This document shows, piece after piece, positions 4,620-62,538 of a stretch of 64,000 nt of DNA. Source of the stretch: Escherichia phage vB-Eco-KMB23; sequence record OR525702.1; one strand, 5' to 3'. A program made the translations under genes and the position numbers. The notes beneath the pieces were generated by a model. It did no database searches. It saw nothing but the letters and a program-made list of their open reading frames with translations, and was not told where the DNA came from. The first letter of the stretch is position 1, and each line of letters opens with the position of its first letter.

Positions 4620-6038
4620 TTATGGATAGGTATAGATGATACCAGTTTCTAAAGCAGTTTTATGAATGATGTATCCATTACGTGATTCTTGAACATCAAC
4701 TTCTGGATAGTCTTTCATCATCTTCTGAAGGGTGTAACGATGCAGGTAGTATTTACTATCTGGATCTTCAGTTTTCCAATCTTTACCTTCTTCGGTCATT
4801 TTTTGGATTTCATCCATAACCCACCAACCGCACCAGATATAAGCCGAAGTACGATGTGGAAGAGGATGAACATAAGGCAATTCACCTTCTGGTTCTGGAG
4901 CAACTTTATCAGTTACCTGAACTTGACCTTCTGCTGTGATAGTTTTGCTATCATAATCAGTAGCAGTAACAGTTGCAGTAACTTCAATAGTTTGACTTCC
5001 AATAGATGATGTATCAACAGTGTATACATTAGTTGACCCTTCTACTGGAGAAGAATCTTTCTTCCATGAATATTCGATTTGTGCTTCTTCTGGAGCATCC
5101 GTAACATTAGCAGTAAATGTAGCCGAAGCATCTTGCTGAACGTTAATAGAAGGAGGAGTCAATGTAACCTGTGGATTCATTGTCTTCTTATTAACTGTTA
5201 ATGATACTTCATTAGAAGTAACTGTTTTTGCGTCATAATCTGTTGCTGTTACTTGCGCTACGCATTTAATTCTTTTTACTCCACTTGTAGTTGGAGTATA
5301 GCTAAATGTAGCAGAAGTCGCTTCACCAATTTGAGAATCATCTACATACCACTGATACGTAGCAGATGCCCCATCAGGTTGAGAAGCTAAGGCAGCGGTA
5401 AATTCAACGGCTGTTCCAATCACTCCAGCTGGAGGACTATCAGGAGTTACTGCCAAGGTAGTCGTCTGCGTCTTTTTATTAACAGTCAATGATACTTCAT
5501 TAGAAGTAACGCTTAGTGCATCATAATCTGCCGCAGTTACTTGAGCTACACACTTGATTTTTTTAACTCCGCTTGTGTCAGGAGTGTAATTGAATGTAGC
5601 GTCAGTTGCTTCGTCTACAGGAGAACCGTCAACGTGCCATTGATACGTAGCGTTTGCACCTGATGGCTGTGAAGCTAAGGCAGCGGTAAATTGAACGGCT
5701 GTTCCGATTACTCCTTCCGGAGGACTAGCAGGAGTTACGGCTAATGTAGTTGTCTGTGTCTTATTTTGAACCGTGATAGTTGTCGTAGTTTCTGCTGTTT
5801 CAGGTTCAGATTCTGCAACTTGATTGGTTGCAACTACTTTAATAGTCTTTTGACCGGCAGGTCCTTTTAGTACATAACTAAAAGTTGCTGACGTTTCTTC
5901 CTGTGGAGCGTCGTCTACAGTCCAAGCATATGTAATAGGTCCATCTCCAGTTTGACCACTGGGTGTAGCAGTAAACTGCTGAGTCTGATCTATAACTCCA
6001 GTAGGTGTTTTAGGAGTTATATCAACTGTAAAAGCCAT
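4620..6038 (-). CDS. hoc: highly immunogenic outer capsid protein Hoc, expanded form (472 aa)
   Basis: Repeated Ig-like modules plus C-terminal capsid-binding region; T4 hoc position; about 96 aa longer than T4 Hoc as I recall it (376 aa). Confidence 0.88.
   Translation of the reverse strand: MAFTVDITPKTPTGVIDQTQQFTATPSGQTGDGPITYAWTVDDAPQEETSATFSYVLKGPAGQKTIKVVATNQVAESEPETAETTTTITVQNKTQTTTLAVTPASPPEGVIGTAVQFTAALASQPSGANATYQWHVDGSPVDEATDATFNYTPDTSGVKKIKCVAQVTAADYDALSVTSNEVSLTVNKKTQTTTLAVTPDSPPAGVIGTAVEFTAALASQPDGASATYQWYVDDSQIGEATSATFSYTPTTSGVKRIKCVAQVTATDYDAKTVTSNEVSLTVNKKTMNPQVTLTPPSINVQQDASATFTANVTDAPEEAQIEYSWKKDSSPVEGSTNVYTVDTSSIGSQTIEVTATVTATDYDSKTITAEGQVQVTDKVAPEPEGELPYVHPLPHRTSAYIWCGWWVMDEIQKMTEEGKDWKTEDPDSKYYLHRYTLQKMMKDYPEVDVQESRNGYIIHKTALETGIIYTYP
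5176..5763. repeat. tandem duplication (2 x 288 bp) inside hoc encoding two near-identical Ig-like domains
   Basis: Direct repeat with period 288 bp (e.g. TTATTAAC(T/A)GT(T/C)AATGATACTTCATTAGAAGTAAC at 5188 and 5476); encoded 96-aa units are roughly 85 percent identical. Confidence 0.85.
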
Positions 6039-16816: not shown

Positions 16817-16820
16817 CAAC

Positions 16821-16850
16821 GGGGACCTTTCGGTCCCCATATTTTTATTT
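16821..16850 (+). terminator. intrinsic terminator after gene 54
   Basis: GGGGACC-TTTCG-GTCCCC hairpin followed by ATATTTTTATTT. Confidence 0.7.
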
Positions 16851-17135
16851 GCGGAATGAAATGAAAGCAGAAACTGAAGCAACTAAACTATCTTCAATAT
16901 AAACTTCAATTTTTACCGGAGCTTCTGACTCAAATTTACCTGTTACTACACCTTGGAAAATACTTTCAGTTTGTTCTGGCTTTGAAAAATTTTCAGAAGG
17001 AAAAATTCCGAACTTTTTATCTGTTCCAAAAATTTTAATAAATTCATCGTAAACTGCTTCATTAAAAGCATTATCAACAGGAATAACGCCTTCAACTACA
17101 AGTTCTTGACCTAAAAAGCGTAAAGAAGATTTCAT
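16845..17135 (-). CDS. hypothetical protein (alt.-3 position, 96 aa)
   Basis: ORF with ATG and GAGGA RBS, downstream of an early promoter cassette. Confidence 0.6.
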   Translation of the reverse strand: MKSSLRFLGQELVVEGVIPVDNAFNEAVYDEFIKIFGTDKKFGIFPSENFSKPEQTESIFQGVVTGKFESEAPVKIEVYIEDSLVASVSAFISFRK

Positions 17136-17159
17136 TTTGTGTTCCTCATGTTATGTCAG

Positions 17160-17196
17160 TAAGACTACTATAACACAACACGAGGGACTTGTAAAC
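17160..17196 (-). promoter_or_regulatory. T4-type early promoter (GTTTAC -35, TATAGT -10) for the alt.-3-like ORF
   Basis: - strand GTTTAC, 18-nt spacer, TG-n-TATAGT; part of a 54-bp cassette identical to 32464..32520. Confidence 0.55.
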
Positions 17197-19253
17197 TACA
17201 TTTTGAACTTTTTAGACATTCCGTTGATGTTAACCAAAGAAGCTAAGATTTGAGAAACTTCGTTTTCCTCTTCTTTTGATTCTTCTACAAGGAATTGATT
17301 AAATCCAGTCATTGGACGAACTTCACCAGTTTCCATTAAATGGTCGCCATCATATACTGATTCTTCTAATTGTTCAGAAGGAGGAACGATTGTGCCTTCG
17401 ATTAAATACTTGTTATAAGCAGTTTCTTTCATCATGTACGTGCTCACTTTATTAATCTTCAGCAAAATTCCACGCGGTAAAATAACTTCAGCTTCTGATG
17501 GAAATCCTGATAAATGACCTGGAACGATAACTTTGATTCGCTCAGCCCCTTTAATTACCATACCTACGCTAGTTTCAGCATCTTCATTAGCATATGCGGA
17601 ATGACTACCCATATGCATTAAATCTTCAGCATCAACTGAACCTTCTCCTTCACCAGAAAATACTGCACTGGAATCATCTAAAGCCATATAGTTTTTACCA
17701 TACTCACCGAAGATATTTGGTTTAAGCGATGTTGATACGAAGTTCTTGAAATAGAACATTTTATTTTCAATATTATGGCGTAAAGTTTTAAAAGTAACTT
17801 CTTGTCCACGATAAAGCGTAGTTCCTGGAGGAAGAACTGATCCTTTGGCGAATGCAGAATCCAGCGTCTCGATGTGTTTAATAGCTCGTTCCATGTATTC
17901 TTCACGAGTAGAATCTGGTTTACCCAAGAGGAACGAGTTCATTTCAACATATGAATCTGCACAATAATCTTCAATTACATCGGACTCAGCCTGAGTTAAT
18001 CCTTTTGGGGGTACTTCAGTACTTGCATATTCATACGCTTGAGAAGCAGACTCATTAATCAATTTATAAATGCCATTCATGACAAATTGAATAATAGCTA
18101 CCTTTTCATCTGGCGTGGCTTTAGAACCTTTAACTAAATCATTGACAATTTTCTTAATAACATCAAAGCTATTAGAAATATTAATGTCAGCAAGATCGCT
18201 CAAAATTTTATCGGTTTTATAATCAAAGAATTCTTTATTCTTTAAATATTCCTGAGAACCTTGATATGTTATATCGCTCTGTAATTTAATAGATGGATCA
18301 CGTAAACGCGCATGGGCCAATGCAATATGATTTCGGAAGCTTTCTAGTTCATAATCGTTAGATTTAAAACGAGAAGCACTCCTCATACCACCGATAGCTC
18401 CTTTGCTGAAGTTTGAACCAATCTGAATAACGCCAGAGTTCATTGGTCCTTCTGCTTTATATACCGGAACTTTAGATTCAAACTCTTGATATTTCTTAGC
18501 GGCGAAGCTATCACCCTGAAGTGAAGCATCAACAGTAGAATATTGAGCTTGTGCTGCTAATCGACGACTAATTTTAGTTTTCTGAATAACAGCTTGATCC
18601 GTGCGCTTATCATTTTCTAAAGCAATAGAAGCAGCAACAGCAACAGCTTTAGGAACAGCATTACCTGTTTTAACATCTACATAAACATCACCAACCTTTG
18701 ATTCAACTTTTGTGAATAACTCAGTTGAAATAGGAGGTACACCTGGAATGTCTTCTAAATTGGCATTTTTACGGTAAACCATAATATATGCATACTTTTT
18801 ATCATAATCCCAGATTTCCTTTAAAAGAACATATCGACCTGCTCCTTTAGTACGTACTAAACGGTCAGCAATAACTTGCATTTGACGAGCAGCGCCATTT
18901 GTTTTACTTTTTAGTACGCGGAATAGGCATGCGTCAATTTTATACTGTTTCATTGTTTGAAGAGCAGTATCAAAAACCGCATTAATGACACCAATTGGAT
19001 TTCCACCCAAGTTTTTAAGTTTAACTAATGATAGTTTCTCATTAACACCTATCATTACGATATGCATCATTTTATCGCCTGGCTTAACGTTTTTATTTGT
19101 ATCACCGCCAGAGGTGTATGTACAAAATCTAAATCCAGGAAGCACGCTTTCTTCACCAGCTTGAATAGCAAAAATTTGAGGTATTTTATGCTTAGGATTT
19201 AAGTTAACAACCGGCGCCGAAGCGCCGTCAAATAATTCTGTAATAAGTTCCAT
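17196..19253 (-). CDS. Alt-like ADP-ribosyltransferase paralogue (685 aa)
   Basis: N-terminal ~230 aa closely parallel the adjacent alt product (MELITELFD...); ART-like motifs LYRGQ, FVSTSL, SEAEVILPRG. Confidence 0.85.
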   Translation of the reverse strand: MELITELFDGASAPVVNLNPKHKIPQIFAIQAGEESVLPGFRFCTYTSGGDTNKNVKPGDKMMHIVMIGVNEKLSLVKLKNLGGNPIGVINAVFDTALQTMKQYKIDACLFRVLKSKTNGAARQMQVIADRLVRTKGAGRYVLLKEIWDYDKKYAYIMVYRKNANLEDIPGVPPISTELFTKVESKVGDVYVDVKTGNAVPKAVAVAASIALENDKRTDQAVIQKTKISRRLAAQAQYSTVDASLQGDSFAAKKYQEFESKVPVYKAEGPMNSGVIQIGSNFSKGAIGGMRSASRFKSNDYELESFRNHIALAHARLRDPSIKLQSDITYQGSQEYLKNKEFFDYKTDKILSDLADINISNSFDVIKKIVNDLVKGSKATPDEKVAIIQFVMNGIYKLINESASQAYEYASTEVPPKGLTQAESDVIEDYCADSYVEMNSFLLGKPDSTREEYMERAIKHIETLDSAFAKGSVLPPGTTLYRGQEVTFKTLRHNIENKMFYFKNFVSTSLKPNIFGEYGKNYMALDDSSAVFSGEGEGSVDAEDLMHMGSHSAYANEDAETSVGMVIKGAERIKVIVPGHLSGFPSEAEVILPRGILLKINKVSTYMMKETAYNKYLIEGTIVPPSEQLEESVYDGDHLMETGEVRPMTGFNQFLVEESKEEENEVSQILASLVNINGMSKKFKM

Positions 19254-19256
19254 GAT

Positions 19257-21353
19257 TTATCCTTGAACGAACTTGTAAGGCATGTTTGTAATATCTATGC
19301 AAGACGCAATAATTCCAAGAGATGATTCTACTTTTTGTTTAACATTTGATGAAACAAATGATGCAAAATCAACTCTGTCTTCTATTTCAATATCACCTGT
19401 CATTGCAACTACTTCACCAGTTTCCATTAGACGATCACCGTCATAAATTACTGATTCGGTGAGTTCTTCCGTAGTCATAACTTCAGCTTGAATGAGTTTT
19501 GTATTATTAGATGTTGTTCCGTCATTATTAGAAGCATCAGTTATTTTATTAACTTTGACCATCAATCCGCGTGGTAGAATAACTTCAGCTTCTGTTGCTA
19601 TTCCGAGACTTCCTGGATATACAACATTAACTTTATGAGCTCCATCAATTGCCCATCCTATTTGAACTTTAACGTATTCAGGATTTTCTTTATACGCTCT
19701 TATTTCGTTTGGATTAATAGTTATTCCTTCTTCATTTTTATCAACTGTCAATTCATTACGAGCTTCTGGTTCTAAAAGACCAATACCAGCATGTGTAATT
19801 CCAAAACGTCCAAAAATGATAGGAGTTAAAGAAGTAGATACAAAATTTCTGAAATAGAATACTTTATTTTTAACTAGTGCTTCGTATATAGGAGCAGTCA
19901 TACTTTGAGCACGATAAACTGTAATGCCTTCTGGTATACGGTCACCATTTTCAAAAGCTGAATCTAAGTTATTTATAGCAGATTCAATTTCTTTTTCACT
20001 CATTACATCATATCGTTCTGGATTGTAGCGTCCTAAAAGAAGATTATTGATGTCAGTATATCCTGAACCACAATACTCTCTAATACCACGCTTTTGTGAT
20101 GGAGTATATTTAGAACCATCACGAGCAATAGTAATATCAATCATTGGACCTGCACCAATTCCAGAAAAGCTATAAATCATTCGTTTGAGGAATTTAGTTT
20201 TTGCTGCGTTCCAGGAATTTTTAGTTATTTCTTCCCAGACTTCATCTGACTGCCCTTTACGAGTTTTATTATGTTTATCAAGCCAATTATCTTTATATTC
20301 TTCAAAGAATTGATTAACAGCTGCTGCGTATTTCTCTAAACATTTTATTGAAGTAGTTGGTTCATTTTTAATCGCATTAAGAATTACATCTTTAATTTTT
20401 TCAGAAACTTCATTAACCTCACTTTTTGAAAAGAATTTATAGTCATAATGAAGTTCATCTGCAGTTCCTTCAGCAATAATTTTTGCTGCTTTAGTTTTAG
20501 AAGCCAATGAATTAATTCCAAGTTTCATTTCTTCTGCTTCGGGAATTAAAGGAGCGGTAGCAGGTTTATTGAAATTAGCTGCGGTAGATTCATACTTCTG
20601 GAATAATTCACTTTCAAATCTAGAAGATTCTAATGATTGACTTTGTGCAATTGCTCTACGGGAAATTTTAACTTTAACGATTACAGCTTGGTCAGAACGT
20701 TTATCATTTTCTTGCGCAATAGATGCAGCAATTGCCTCATTTTTAGTTACTTGAGCTCCAGTATCTTTATTGATATAAACATCACCGACCTTCGATTCAA
20801 CTTTAGTAAAGAGCTCGGTACTAATTTCCGGAACTCCTGGAATGTCTTCTAGTGATACATTTTTGCGATGTATAAGAATATATGCATACTTTTTATCGTA
20901 ATCCCAGAGTTCCTTAAGAAGGACGTATCTGCCACCTGAACGACTGCGGATAAGTCTATCAGCAATAAGTTGAATTTGACGAGCTTGACCAGCAGTTTTA
21001 GACTTAAGAATACGGAGCATACAGGCATCAATTTTATACTGACGCATCGTCTGCATCGCAACAGTAAAAACTGAATTGATGTAATTAATTGGGCTTGGAC
21101 CGAGACCTTTTAATTTAGCAATTGAACCTTTAGCAGTTAATGTAAAAGGAACAATATGCATCATTTTATCGCCCATCTTTAAATCGCGATTAGTATCACC
21201 TCCAGATGTATAGGTACATAAACGAAAGCCTGGTTGTTCAATTGCGTCATCAACATGAACTGAAAAAATTTGTGGTATTTTCTTCTTTGGATTTAAGTTT
21301 GTAATCGGAAGAGTAGTATCTTCGTCAAATAATTCTGTAATGAGTTCCATCAT
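19257..21353 (-). CDS. alt: Alt ADP-ribosyltransferase, head-packaged (698 aa)
   Basis: Matches T4 Alt as recalled; N-terminal MELITE capsid-targeting region; motifs VYRAQ, FVSTSL, TEAEVILPRG; late promoter upstream. Confidence 0.92.
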   Translation of the reverse strand: MMELITELFDEDTTLPITNLNPKKKIPQIFSVHVDDAIEQPGFRLCTYTSGGDTNRDLKMGDKMMHIVPFTLTAKGSIAKLKGLGPSPINYINSVFTVAMQTMRQYKIDACMLRILKSKTAGQARQIQLIADRLIRSRSGGRYVLLKELWDYDKKYAYILIHRKNVSLEDIPGVPEISTELFTKVESKVGDVYINKDTGAQVTKNEAIAASIAQENDKRSDQAVIVKVKISRRAIAQSQSLESSRFESELFQKYESTAANFNKPATAPLIPEAEEMKLGINSLASKTKAAKIIAEGTADELHYDYKFFSKSEVNEVSEKIKDVILNAIKNEPTTSIKCLEKYAAAVNQFFEEYKDNWLDKHNKTRKGQSDEVWEEITKNSWNAAKTKFLKRMIYSFSGIGAGPMIDITIARDGSKYTPSQKRGIREYCGSGYTDINNLLLGRYNPERYDVMSEKEIESAINNLDSAFENGDRIPEGITVYRAQSMTAPIYEALVKNKVFYFRNFVSTSLTPIIFGRFGITHAGIGLLEPEARNELTVDKNEEGITINPNEIRAYKENPEYVKVQIGWAIDGAHKVNVVYPGSLGIATEAEVILPRGLMVKVNKITDASNNDGTTSNNTKLIQAEVMTTEELTESVIYDGDRLMETGEVVAMTGDIEIEDRVDFASFVSSNVKQKVESSLGIIASCIDITNMPYKFVQG

Positions 21354-21373: not shown

Positions 21374-21381
21374 TATTTATA
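21374..21381 (-). promoter_or_regulatory. late promoter TATAAATA for alt
   Basis: TATAAATA on the - strand about 20 bp upstream of the alt ATG. Confidence 0.55.
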
Positions 21382-31616: not shown

Positions 31617-31966
31617 TTAGAAAGGTCCTGGATGTCTTCTGCGAACTTGTTGAAGGAGTTGTTGATTTGTTTTTCAACCAATCCTGGCTTATGAGCCACC
31701 ACATCCGCCTTCTTTGCATCTTTGCGCAGTTTTTCATTTTCACGCTCAATAGCAGCAATTGCCTCACGATTTTTATTATTCATCGCATCAATATAATTAT
31801 ACTGAATTCGCAAATTATTTAATGCTAAGGCGTTTTCATTGGCCGTTTTTGTAATTTCAGTAACCGATGTTTCTAATCTTTCTACCTTATTTTTTAAAAT
31901 AATAGATGTTCCGCCAAATACTATTACAAGTAATAGCAAACCTGCTGTCGTATTACTTAATTGCAT
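31613..31966 (-). CDS. i-spanin, inner-membrane (Rz equivalent, 117 aa)
   Basis: N-terminal transmembrane segment (GLLLLVIVFGGTSIIL) followed by a charged coiled-coil-like region; matches the T4 pseT.3 role. Confidence 0.75.
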   Translation of the reverse strand: MQLSNTTAGLLLLVIVFGGTSIILKNKVERLETSVTEITKTANENALALNNLRIQYNYIDAMNNKNREAIAAIERENEKLRKDAKKADVVAHKPGLVEKQINNSFNKFAEDIQDLSK

Positions 31967-32463
31967 AAAGTTTTAATAACCTCTATAATATCGTCTTGAG
32001 AAAGACCGTTAATTAAAATATGATGTTCCGCCGGAGATTTAGAAATTTTAAAGCATGCCGCAACATCTTCTGCCATATCCGATGCGCTACGATTTGGATT
32101 ACTAATTCCAAGACGATGTTTTCCCGTTAAAGGATTAACGATGATATAGCATTTACAGCTATTGATATGAACATTAGGTTGAGTCTGATTAATGAATACA
32201 TCACAATCATATTTCGCAAGCTGATTTTCTAAAAAGACTTTCATCTCCTCAACCGCATCAGGAAGCATATCACGGGCTTGCTCAAGACGACGATTTCGAT
32301 ATTCTTTAATGGTCGTTTTCCGCTTGACTTGCTTAGCTAAATCTTTCTTAAGATCGGTGATATATCCAACTCGACGATTTCCTTTAAATACAGAAATCCC
32401 ATCTGTAGTATCACCGTATGCTTCAACGACCATTTCAGTAGTAATAAGCTGCAAATCCATCAT
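31957..32463 (-). CDS. alc: Alc, inhibitor of host transcription
   Basis: 167-168 aa in the T4 alc slot between the spanins and rnlA; early promoter upstream. Confidence 0.8.
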   Translation of the reverse strand: MMDLQLITTEMVVEAYGDTTDGISVFKGNRRVGYITDLKKDLAKQVKRKTTIKEYRNRRLEQARDMLPDAVEEMKVFLENQLAKYDCDVFINQTQPNVHINSCKCYIIVNPLTGKHRLGISNPNRSASDMAEDVAACFKISKSPAEHHILINGLSQDDIIEVIKTLCN

Positions 32464-32484
32464 AAAGTCCTCATGTTATGTCAG

Positions 32485-32521
32485 TAAGACTACTATAACA
32501 CAACACGAGGGACTTGTAAAC
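32485..32521 (-). promoter_or_regulatory. early promoter for alc (second copy of the 54-bp cassette)
   Basis: Cassette CCTCATGTTATGTCAGTAAGACTACTATAACACAACACGAGGGACTTGTAAAC identical to the one at 17141..17195. Confidence 0.55.
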
Positions 32522-32524
32522 AGC

Positions 32525-34112
<1,588 letters not shown>

Positions 34113-41827: not shown

Positions 41828-41867
41828 ATTGTTTTCCTCTTTAATCATCAGCAGTATTGCCGATAGT

Positions 41868-41902
41868 TGTATAGTACCATGGAAGAACAAGGATGTAAAC
41901 AG
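41868..41902 (-). promoter_or_regulatory. early promoter (GTTTAC ... TGGTACTAT)
   Basis: - strand AAAAATTTTTCACAAAACTGTTTAC -35 region and TGGTACTATACAACTATC -10 region. Confidence 0.5.
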
Positions 41903-41910
41903 TTTTGTGA

Positions 41911-41949
41911 AAAATTTTTAAAATAAAAAAGGGGACCTCTAGGGTCCCC
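41911..41949 (-). terminator. intrinsic terminator after gene 32
   Basis: GGGGACC-CTCTAG-GGTCCCC hairpin followed on the - strand by TTTTTTATTTTAAAAATTTTT. Confidence 0.65.
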
Positions 41950-58238: not shown

Positions 58239-58274
58239 TTTCTAATCTCCGTAATTCTGTATCAGTAGTTGATA

Positions 58275-58312
58275 GTTGTATAGTACCACAGTATGCTTTG
58301 GTTGTAAACCGT
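58275..58312 (-). promoter_or_regulatory. early promoter for motA
   Basis: - strand TTTTTTCACAAAACGGTTTAC -35 and TGGTACTATACAACTATCAACTAC -10 region. Confidence 0.55.
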
Positions 58313-58329
58313 TTTGTGAAAAAATTTTA

Positions 58330-58357
58330 AAATAAAAAAGGAGAGCCGAGGCTCTCC
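58330..58357 (-). terminator. intrinsic terminator upstream of the motA promoter
   Basis: GGAGAGC-CGAG-GCTCTCC hairpin followed on the - strand by TTTTTATTTTA. Confidence 0.6.
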
Positions 58358-61389: not shown

Positions 61390-61454
61390 TTTCTGTTCCT
61401 CCGTAGTTGATAGAGTAATAATACCACGGAAGAACAGTCTTGTAAACAACTTTT

Positions 61455-61896: not shown

Positions 61897-61929
61897 TTTA
61901 TTCTCCAAATCCGTATCAGTAGTTGATAG

Positions 61930-61965
61930 TTGTATAGTACCACGGTCCTTGTGGTATGTAAACTG
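61930..61965 (-). promoter_or_regulatory. early promoter (GTTTAC ... TGGTACTAT family)
   Basis: - strand TTTCACAAAACAGTTTAC -35 and GTGGTACTATACAACTATCAACTAC -10 region, shared with the motA and 41868 promoters. Confidence 0.5.
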
Positions 61966-61980
61966 TTTTGTGAAATTTTT

Positions 61981-62538
61981 TTAAATGGAAAGATACCATC
62001 CGTTGTAGTTGCTTTTTCTTACAACCCTACGAAGGTCTTCTCTGTCACCGATGAACTTCGGAGTGTACTGGATGACACCTGGATGAATTTCTTTAGTGTT
62101 GAATATAATTATACAGTCAGCGACTTGATGATTTAGAATGGGCCCTAAATTTATTCCAGAACCATATGGATACTCTCCGCTGCATCCCGTTGTTACCGAA
62201 ATCCAACGCGAGTCAGTTTGATGTGTTTTGACTTCTACACGAAGCCCGCAATATTTTGGATGCGCTAAAACATCCCATGCATACGTGTACGGATCATCGA
62301 CATTTTCTTGGCCTTTATTGACATATCCGCTTAGCCAATCTGCCACAAAAAACTCTGCGTACACAGCGATACGGCATCTTTCGATAACTTCTGCTTTATC
62401 CTGGTTCGGGTTTTGTTTTAAAGAGTATCTTGCTGTATCAGCAATTTTGACCTTCATTTCACTAGTCAAGTCACTGTTCGATAGGGTAAATGTCGGAATC
62501 TGAAATAGTCTCTGTAAACCCGGATTCGTTTTCTGCAT
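61981..62538 (-). CDS. denB: endonuclease IV (185 aa)
   Basis: 185 aa in the T4 denB position between ndd.x and rIIB; assignment by length and synteny. Confidence 0.75.
   Translation of the reverse strand: MQKTNPGLQRLFQIPTFTLSNSDLTSEMKVKIADTARYSLKQNPNQDKAEVIERCRIAVYAEFFVADWLSGYVNKGQENVDDPYTYAWDVLAHPKYCGLRVEVKTHQTDSRWISVTTGCSGEYPYGSGINLGPILNHQVADCIIIFNTKEIHPGVIQYTPKFIGDREDLRRVVRKSNYNGWYLSI

Follow-up and report, generated by a model that had tools for sequence, protein, structure and literature searches.

Why should two early promoters of one phage genome, some 15 kb apart and serving different genes, agree letter for letter over spacer and leader? The question is raised by a window of 64,000 nucleotides (the whole stretch of DNA that was analysed) from Escherichia phage vB-Eco-KMB23 (OR525702.1), a Tequatrovirus (T4-like phage) with 97-98% identity to many isolates. 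A preliminary description, made from the letters alone, had reported an identical 54-bp early promoter/leader cassette at two loci, regarded such identity as unusual for independently evolving promoters, and connected it with the promoter-early-stem-loop (PeSL) cassettes proposed to mediate modular gene shuffling in T4-type phages. The repeat itself was borne out: a repeat search of the window recovered the pair as an exact 54-nt repeat with 0 mismatches, at 17143-17196 and 32468-32521 (copies 15,325 bp apart), which moves the earlier positions (17141-17195 and 32464-32520) by 1-4 bases. The 53-nt string quoted earlier has exactly two exact matches in the window (17144-17196 and 32469-32521) and none in 100 dinucleotide shuffles of it. 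The identical stretch is bounded upstream by the -35 and downstream by the Shine-Dalgarno sequence (SD). The arrangement is the following.

17143-17196, minus strand: cassette copy 1 (54 nt, exact repeat), 5' of alt.-3, with the minus-strand sequence GTTTACAAGTCCCTCGTGTTGTGTTATAGTAGTCTTACTGACATAACATGAGGA
32468-32521, minus strand: cassette copy 2 (54 nt, exact repeat), 5' of alc, the ancestral site of this promoter/hairpin type
16845-17135, minus strand: alt.-3 (96 aa), served by copy 1
31957-32463, minus strand: alc (inhibitor of host transcription), served by copy 2
17196-19253, minus strand: Alt-like paralogue (685 aa), directly 5' of copy 1, truncated to alt.-1/alt.-2 in T4
32525-33649, minus strand: rnlA (RNA ligase 1 / tail-fibre attachment), directly 5' of copy 2

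Copy 1 thus lies between the stop codon of the Alt-like paralogue and the alt.-3 ATG, copy 2 between rnlA and alc, and the genes at both loci are all on the minus strand. The product of alt.-3 is uncharacterised and non-essential, and C-terminal extensions of it escape CmdTAC (PMC11618068). Within the window, most early promoters are at most about 65% identical to one another, and in the same interval the alc/alt.-3 pair matches at 54/55 positions, against no more than 37/55 for any other early-promoter pair. Among 50,697 phage records searched, the 54-mer occurs at 997 places in 499 records, about two per genome, all of them from Tequatrovirus, with T4, T6, PST and the RB phages among them. 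Because some 499 Tequatrovirus genomes carry about two 54-mers each, the cassette pair is to be regarded as fixed in the genus, as are its two positions.

On the minus strand, motif scoring of both copies confirmed the -35 GTTTAC, extended -10 and leader running to the ribosome-binding site of the preliminary description: each has the -35 TTTACA, a 17-nt spacer, TGn and the -10 TATAGT, with 10/12 consensus matches. Both therefore display the -35, approximately 17-nt spacer, TGn and TAnnnT -10 by which T4-type early (sigma-70) promoters are recognised.

17190-17195, minus strand: -35 TTTACA of copy 1 (10/12 consensus, 17-nt spacer, TG present)
17167-17172, minus strand: -10 TATAGT of copy 1, after TGn (consensus scoring)
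32515-32520, minus strand: -35 TTTACA of copy 2 (consensus scoring)
32492-32497, minus strand: -10 TATAGT of copy 2, after TGn (consensus scoring), with a predicted +1 at the A at 32485
17143-17147, minus strand: SD GAGGA of alt.-3, within the hairpin 3' arm described below
32468-32472, minus strand: SD GAGGA of alc

The G of GTTTAC at 17196 doubles as the final base of the upstream TAG stop codon, and the standard 7-nt distance places the predicted +1 of copy 1 at the A at 17160 (cassette position 37). The leader of each copy ends in the SD, 4-7 nt 5' of the start codons. As a side observation, alc has two adjacent in-frame ATGs (32460-32463), the first 4 nt and the second 7 nt from the SD; the start annotated in T4 is the second, at 32460. 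Directly 5' of the -35, in the UP-element region, copy 1 has CTAAAAAGTTCAAAATGTA; copy 2 has an A/T-rich stretch, GAAAAATTATAAAAAATTTA, further upstream, but GGATACTAAGCT adjoining its -35. The late-promoter motif TATAAATA was not found within the cassette, whose internal promoter is of the sigma-70 early type, and the literature on T4 transcription-start mapping yielded nothing specific to the alc or alt.-3 promoter. T4 early promoters are known for an unusually long common consensus comprising the UP element, -35, TGn, -10 and beyond (PMC2988021), and both copies share with the canonical members the -35 GTTTAC(A), the 17-nt spacer, TGn and the -10 TAnnnT (PMC2988021). Unlike most early-promoter pairs of the window, which are no more than about 65% identical, the alc/alt.-3 pair is 100% identical over spacer and leader, the result of one promoter having been copied from the other, as the comparative evidence below indicates.

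What the preliminary description missed is that each cassette is also a long inverted repeat: the transcribed leader, Shine-Dalgarno GAGG included, can base-pair with the beginning of the spacer, CCCTCGTGTTGTGTT, and with the -10 region. Spacer and -10 supply the 5' arm (cassette positions 12-25 and 28-31), leader and SD the 3' arm (36-39 and 40-53), and together these fold into an 18-bp hairpin with a core of -22 kcal/mol.

17144-17185, minus strand: hairpin of copy 1 (18 bp, -22 kcal/mol core, z = -4.4 in context)
32469-32510, minus strand: hairpin of copy 2, extended in context by AAGTCC/GGACTT pairing (about -28 kcal/mol, z = -3.2)

Thermodynamic prediction in genomic context gives minimum free energies of -23.3 kcal/mol for copy 1 and -28.1 kcal/mol for copy 2 (z = -4.4 and -3.2), and no significant fold is predicted for the leader-only RNAs of the cassettes' own promoters. 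Opening the SD is predicted to cost 11.3 kcal/mol (alt.-3) and 7.0 kcal/mol (alc) in read-through RNA, and 2.0 and 1.7 kcal/mol, respectively, in own-promoter RNA. Since the whole 5' arm (positions 12-31) precedes the predicted +1 (position 37), own-promoter RNA would be unable to form the hairpin, which on this model is formable only in RNA started upstream of the cassette. The pairing of promoter spacer with SD also accounts for the constraint on spacer and leader. The terminator scan flagged neither cassette hairpin, no U-tract lies 3' of either, and an Rfam scan of the whole window returned no family at the gathering threshold; an intrinsic-terminator reading of the hairpin was rejected for want of the U-tract. 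The upstream stop codon stands 11-15 nt from the stem, so that terminating ribosomes could open the helix base and leave some coupling.

Whether the hairpin would come into play depends on RNA entering from upstream, and the kinetic classes described for T4 bear on this point. There, alt is expressed late, with RNA appearing from 7 min and its protein from 8 min; alt.-1 and alt.-2 give middle-class RNA, alt.-3 and alc are early in both RNA and protein, and rnlA has early RNA and late protein (PMC9697503). The features of the window that matter here are the following.

21374-21381, minus strand: late-promoter motif TATAAATA, about 20 nt 5' of the alt ATG (21353)
16819-16840, both strands: bidirectional GC-rich terminator hairpin after alt.-3, ending the transcription unit

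The TATAAATA motif before alt is the likely source of late transcripts entering copy 1; no minus-strand terminator-like site was found between this late promoter and copy 1, and no terminator between rnlA and alc. The missing terminators, together with the T4 kinetic classes, place both cassettes at boundaries where later or longer transcripts would enter an immediate-early gene, and read-through into both is plausible from the sequence. A middle-promoter-like motif 5' of rnlA (TGCTT...TACTAT; at 33675-33700 on the minus strand, a MotA-box-like aTGCTTcc, 13 nt and TACTAT) is not relied on, being absent from the table of mapped T4 middle promoters.

The interpretation favoured here, which is held with moderate confidence, is that the two self-contained cassettes limit alc and alt.-3 to their own early promoter by means of an SD-masking hairpin. 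Under this mechanism, mRNA from the internal promoter (predicted +1 at position 37) would lack the 5' arm and keep its SD free, so that alc or alt.-3 could be translated straight after infection, while RNA entering from upstream would contain both arms and bury the SD in the 18-bp hairpin. Such read-through would reach copy 1 from the alt late promoter, via alt and its paralogue, and copy 2 in early or middle transcripts via nrdB, denA and rnlA; the downstream gene would go untranslated from it, with transcription perhaps attenuated as well. Alc and Alt.-3 would, as a net effect, be made only during the brief interval in which the early promoters fire. Translational insulation is the best-supported reading of the promoter motifs, the complementarity, the covariation described next and the T4 kinetic classes; where transcription starts, that RNA runs in from upstream and how translation responds enter it as predicted steps.

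Comparative evidence for the pairing comes from alc, which is conserved across Straboviridae. The region 5' of alc was compared in 15 phages outside Tequatrovirus, representing 13 genera or lineages, and in nine further genera (Gelderlandvirus, Karamvirus, Roskildevirus, Jiaodavirus, Dhakavirus, Marfavirus, Bragavirus, Kanagawavirus (CIP9) and Winklervirus) GTTTACA-N17-TAnnnT is present between rnlA and alc, and the nucleotides that come straight after GTTTACA can pair with the SD region, although the sequences themselves differ (for instance TCTCCGTTTAG/CCAAACGGAGA, ATCCTCATCAG/CTGATGAGGAT and AACCTCTCATTTTT/AAAATGAGAGGTT). Among the 14 nt that follow GTTTACA, 11-14 pair with the SD region in each of 10 genera; pairing at columns 6-9 holds in 10/10 genera, each of these columns showing 2-4 canonical pair types, and the observed complementarity was reached by shuffled leaders in 0-25 of 2000 trials per genus. 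In this count the 5' arm was anchored on the promoter without gaps and the 3' register was picked for maximal pairing, which inflates the percentage paired and leaves the variety of pair types unaffected. It replaced an analysis with MAFFT and RNAalifold of the -35-to-ATG interval in the 10 genera, which gave only a 6-bp consensus because differing loop lengths led these programs to misalign the 3' arms. The SD-masking helix predicted at alc is thus supported by compensatory changes over 10 genera. SD pairing at alc was absent in Mosigvirus, PEi26, Ac42 and avDM2, and the design is therefore dispensable, common but not obligatory.

The same comparison, extended to alt.-3, indicates how the two copies came to be alike. 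The alt.-3 gene is also conserved outside Tequatrovirus. In Dhakavirus, Mosigvirus, Marfavirus and Karamvirus the alt stop codon is immediately followed by a separate early promoter for alt.-3 (TAGTTTACA), whose spacer contains a short hairpin of its own (CCACATGGATGTGG) and whose SD is left unpaired; this promoter is unlike the alc promoter of the same genome (the Mosigvirus pair standing at 40/55). Because the alt.-3 promoter differs in these four genera, the alc-type cassette is best taken as ancestral at alc and derived at alt.-3, and because the ancestral alt.-3 promoter was of another sequence type, the identity of the copies reflects copying and not convergence. The premise of independently evolving promoters consequently falls, the alt.-3 copy deriving from the alc copy. 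The old alt.-3 promoter would have been replaced, in the ancestor of Tequatrovirus, by an alc-type patch of about 40 nt that lies between the common motifs GTTTACA and ACATGAGGA, and ectopic gene conversion is the route suggested by the comparative data; the identity of the copies stops exactly at these two motifs.

Subsequent variation was followed in 13 genomes in which both copies could be read, a sample partly picked for divergence and therefore biased toward divergent genomes, together with pattern scans of IMG/VR and metagenomes (8 loci each). The copies differ at 0-5 positions: they are identical in 4/13 genomes (this window, one IMG/VR contig, PP01 and UFV10), one base apart in three, T4 included, and 2-5 differences apart in the remaining six. 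Each locus has its own common alleles, namely 27C at alc and 29A/32A at alt.-3, the latter turning the -10 into a perfect TATAAT; strict concerted evolution was rejected on account of these alleles and of the genomes with 2-5 differences. Three genomes have the same allele in both places: 29A/32A, the alt.-3 allele, in PP01 and UFV10, and 27C, the alc allele, in GBLB0003. Alleles common to both loci arose to this extent in 370 of 20000 permutations that ignore phylogeny, and the pattern suggests occasional conversion between the copies. Within Tequatrovirus, a C15-G50 pair has changed to T15-A50, with a T.G intermediate in T6, a G16>A change (G.U to A-U) is seen in four copies, and 11/12 variants hold -19 to -23 kcal/mol. 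Near-identity would be kept up mainly by purifying selection on the overlapping promoter, hairpin and SD, with further conversion only occasional; ancestral retention under such multi-layer purifying selection suffices to explain the identical copies of this window, conversion being minor.

Mosigvirus adds a side observation. Its alc promoter (Shigella phage JK42, L009; PhAPEC2, L006) lacks a stem that pairs with the SD and, at 40/55 (rank 1/21 pairs), most closely matches the alt.-3 promoter of that genome, a likeness that may reflect conversion opposite in direction to that of Tequatrovirus. A bolder reading, for which the probability appears low, would make the cassette a portable immediate-early module exchanged between alc and alt.-3 more than once and in both directions (replacement in Tequatrovirus, stem loss in Mosigvirus); if true, exchange repeated in this way would point to selection for matched expression of Alc and Alt.-3 and perhaps to a joint role in one early host-takeover step.

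Several other promoters and repeats of the window provide context. A spacer complementary to the SD of the downstream ORF occurs also at the minus-strand promoters starting at 61447 and 26152 and, more weakly, at 41900, where the -35-to-ATG folds are -22.7, -12.1 and -13.3 kcal/mol and the leaders alone give 0, 0 and -7.6 kcal/mol, respectively; in this genome, the SD-masking design therefore extends beyond alc and alt.-3. Three other early promoters (minus-strand starts 25760, 29214 and 40910) have an inverted repeat with the -10 at its centre and the SD outside it (for example TTTGGTACAGG...CCTGTACCAA), and the stem of this kind of the 30.7 type is conserved in Dhakavirus and Mosigvirus (L008 9146; L009 7640). 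Such -10-centred inverted repeats constitute a second class of promoter-in-hairpin. The family 'GTGGTACTATACAACTATCAACTAC' named in the preliminary description comprises three early promoters (41844-41922, 58253-58331 and 61907-61985), in which the -10 and initial transcribed region are 66-81% identical over 79 nt, compared with 100% for the alc/alt.-3 pair. Beyond promoters, the tandem alt paralogues (698 and 685 aa) share patches of 71-80% DNA identity, offset by about 2094 bp (18542-19214 versus 20636-21308, families D2 and D4; 17305-17507 versus 19396-19604). Two alt genes are also present in Dhakavirus IME08 (alta, altb), and one in Mosigvirus, Marfavirus and Karamvirus. At 5182-5757, in the head-gene region, lies a tandem direct repeat of 288 nt, 78% identical.

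The connection with PeSL cassettes found support in the architecture and none in the gene-shuffling role attached to it. Under the broad definition, a PeSL unit is an early promoter with a stable stem-loop and an SD/ATG, and one of its five subclasses overlaps the -10; a PeSL stem-loop cut downstream lacZ expression as strongly as rrnB T1 (PMC2839356). The cassette has this composition and is intergenic and repeated in the genome, resembling in particular the RB49 subclass overlapping the -10 (PMC2839356). PST/T4-type PeSLs have their stem-loop (AGNA-loop-TCNT) just upstream of the promoter (PMC4122927), and the cassette departs from that placement, its stem spanning spacer, -10, leader and SD. 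The PeSL stem-loop, located 5' of the promoter in T4 and PST, is moreover read as a terminator or attenuator (PMC2839356, PMC4122927), whereas the cassette stem pairs spacer with SD. PeSLs cluster in hyperplastic regions and mark indels (PMC2839356, PMC4122927), whereas the cassette loci are syntenically stable and no rearrangement maps to the cassette: neither indels or replacements between relatives nor hyperplastic ORFan flanks mark it. In the comparison of flanking gene content, loci and neighbours proved constant in about 499 Tequatrovirus genomes, no gene-content difference among these and the genera sampled mapped to the cassette, and rnlA-alc synteny is kept in every Straboviridae genus sampled except Acinetobacter phage Ac42. 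Since equal identity in related phages with gene content unchanged is the very pattern that the preliminary description had named as speaking against it, modular gene shuffling fails as an account of the alc/alt.-3 pair. A crossover between the two direct repeats would, in addition, delete 15.3 kb including genes 30 and 31.

The sole indel beside copy 1 is a 1.69-kb deletion that produced alt.-1/alt.-2 in T4 from the Alt-like paralogue, which is intact in the window (17196-19253). The deletion joins two 9-bp direct repeats, ACTTTTTAG, at a point 19 nt upstream of the -35.

about 17208-17216 and about 18905-18913 in the window, about 123104-123112 in the T4 record: the 9-bp repeats ACTTTTTAG

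A cassette-mediated origin of the T4 truncation was accordingly rejected, the junction being a 9-bp microhomology outside the cassette.

These results also allow the alternatives to insulation to be weighed. The original PeSL concept, in which the stem-loop would act mainly as terminator or attenuator and the cassettes as recombination sites shuffling the genes they flank through mini-circles, deletions and insertions, can draw on the fit to the broad definition with its -10-overlapping subclass and on the lacZ reduction equal to that of rrnB T1 (PMC2839356), on the variable region adjoining copy 1, where the alt paralogue is intact here and truncated in T4, and on the few variants common to both loci, which suggest exchange. 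It is nevertheless judged unlikely: neither hairpin has a U-tract or a terminator-scan match, the 3' arm coincides with the SD in all 10 genera although termination needs no such match, and the stem does not sit just upstream of the promoter as in the PST/T4 type. The recombination part of the concept fares no better against the constant loci and neighbours in some 499 genomes and the rnlA-alc synteny in nearly all genera sampled, the T4 junction at a 9-bp microhomology 19 nt upstream of the -35, and a repeat crossover that would remove 15.3 kb with genes 30 and 31.

A role in RNA processing or stability, with the hairpin shielding the 3' ends of the alt-paralogue and rnlA mRNAs or providing a double-strand RNase site between cistrons and SD masking a by-product, would suit a stable 18-bp stem that comes right behind the upstream stop codons, as well as the similar -10-centred hairpins without SD pairing at other early promoters. 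Those hairpins, clear of the SD, mean that an SD-unrelated function such as attenuation or RNA stability may be the main one of the cassette; because this account leaves the tracking of the SD by the 3' arm in 10 genera unexplained, it seems rather improbable. Lower still is the probability that identity results purely from selection for RNA polymerase binding, with the inverted repeat incidental. The unusually long consensus of T4 early promoters (PMC2988021) and the long stretches common to other early promoters in the window (families D3 and D5) are in keeping with such promoter conservation, but over the same interval other early promoters reach at most 37/55 with freely varying spacers, spacer-SD complementarity is kept through compensatory changes in 10 genera, and the ancestral alt.-3 promoter of four genera is of a different sequence type.

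Insulation by an SD-masking hairpin has, furthermore, well-described relatives in T4. In e (lysozyme), soc, 49 and I-TevI, the SD and/or AUG is buried in transcripts started upstream, and a promoter within or over the 5' arm yields a shorter, translated mRNA without that arm (PMC3014915). This geometry, with the SD in a helix and the internal promoter transcribing the 3' arm only, is the one predicted for the cassette, in which the folds and opening energies point to SD sequestration in upstream-initiated RNA and the predicted +1 gives an internal-promoter mRNA without the 5' arm. In the four T4 genes the internal promoter is late (gp55) and early read-through RNA is silenced, whereas the cassette promoter is of the sigma-70 early type; with an early internal promoter and later or longer RNA silenced, the temporal logic would be reversed. 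The genes alc and alt.-3 are not among the T4 cases listed (PMC3014915), their membership being proposed here from sequence, and the cassette is probably an early-promoter counterpart to the T4 late-promoter-in-RBS-hairpin cases.

Early promoters, PeSLs and promoter-in-hairpin control were already known in T4. In the searchable literature, older primary work aside, no account was found of an SD-pairing hairpin at alc, of its conservation or of alc-to-alt.-3 copying, and these three elements appear to be what is new here. The overall picture of T4 regulation is unchanged by them, the cassette being neat but fairly ordinary, and PeSL-like architecture alone is shown to be no sign of gene shuffling. 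Phage engineers might find in the cassette a compact candidate insulator, one that would tie the expression of a gene to its own promoter alone. For the biology of these phages, compensatory changes in ten genera at the host-shutoff gene alc back an early-promoter counterpart to the late-promoter hairpins, and a sequence that would serve as promoter, hairpin and ribosome-binding site at once offers a reason why 54 bases, including spacer and leader, stay identical at two loci.
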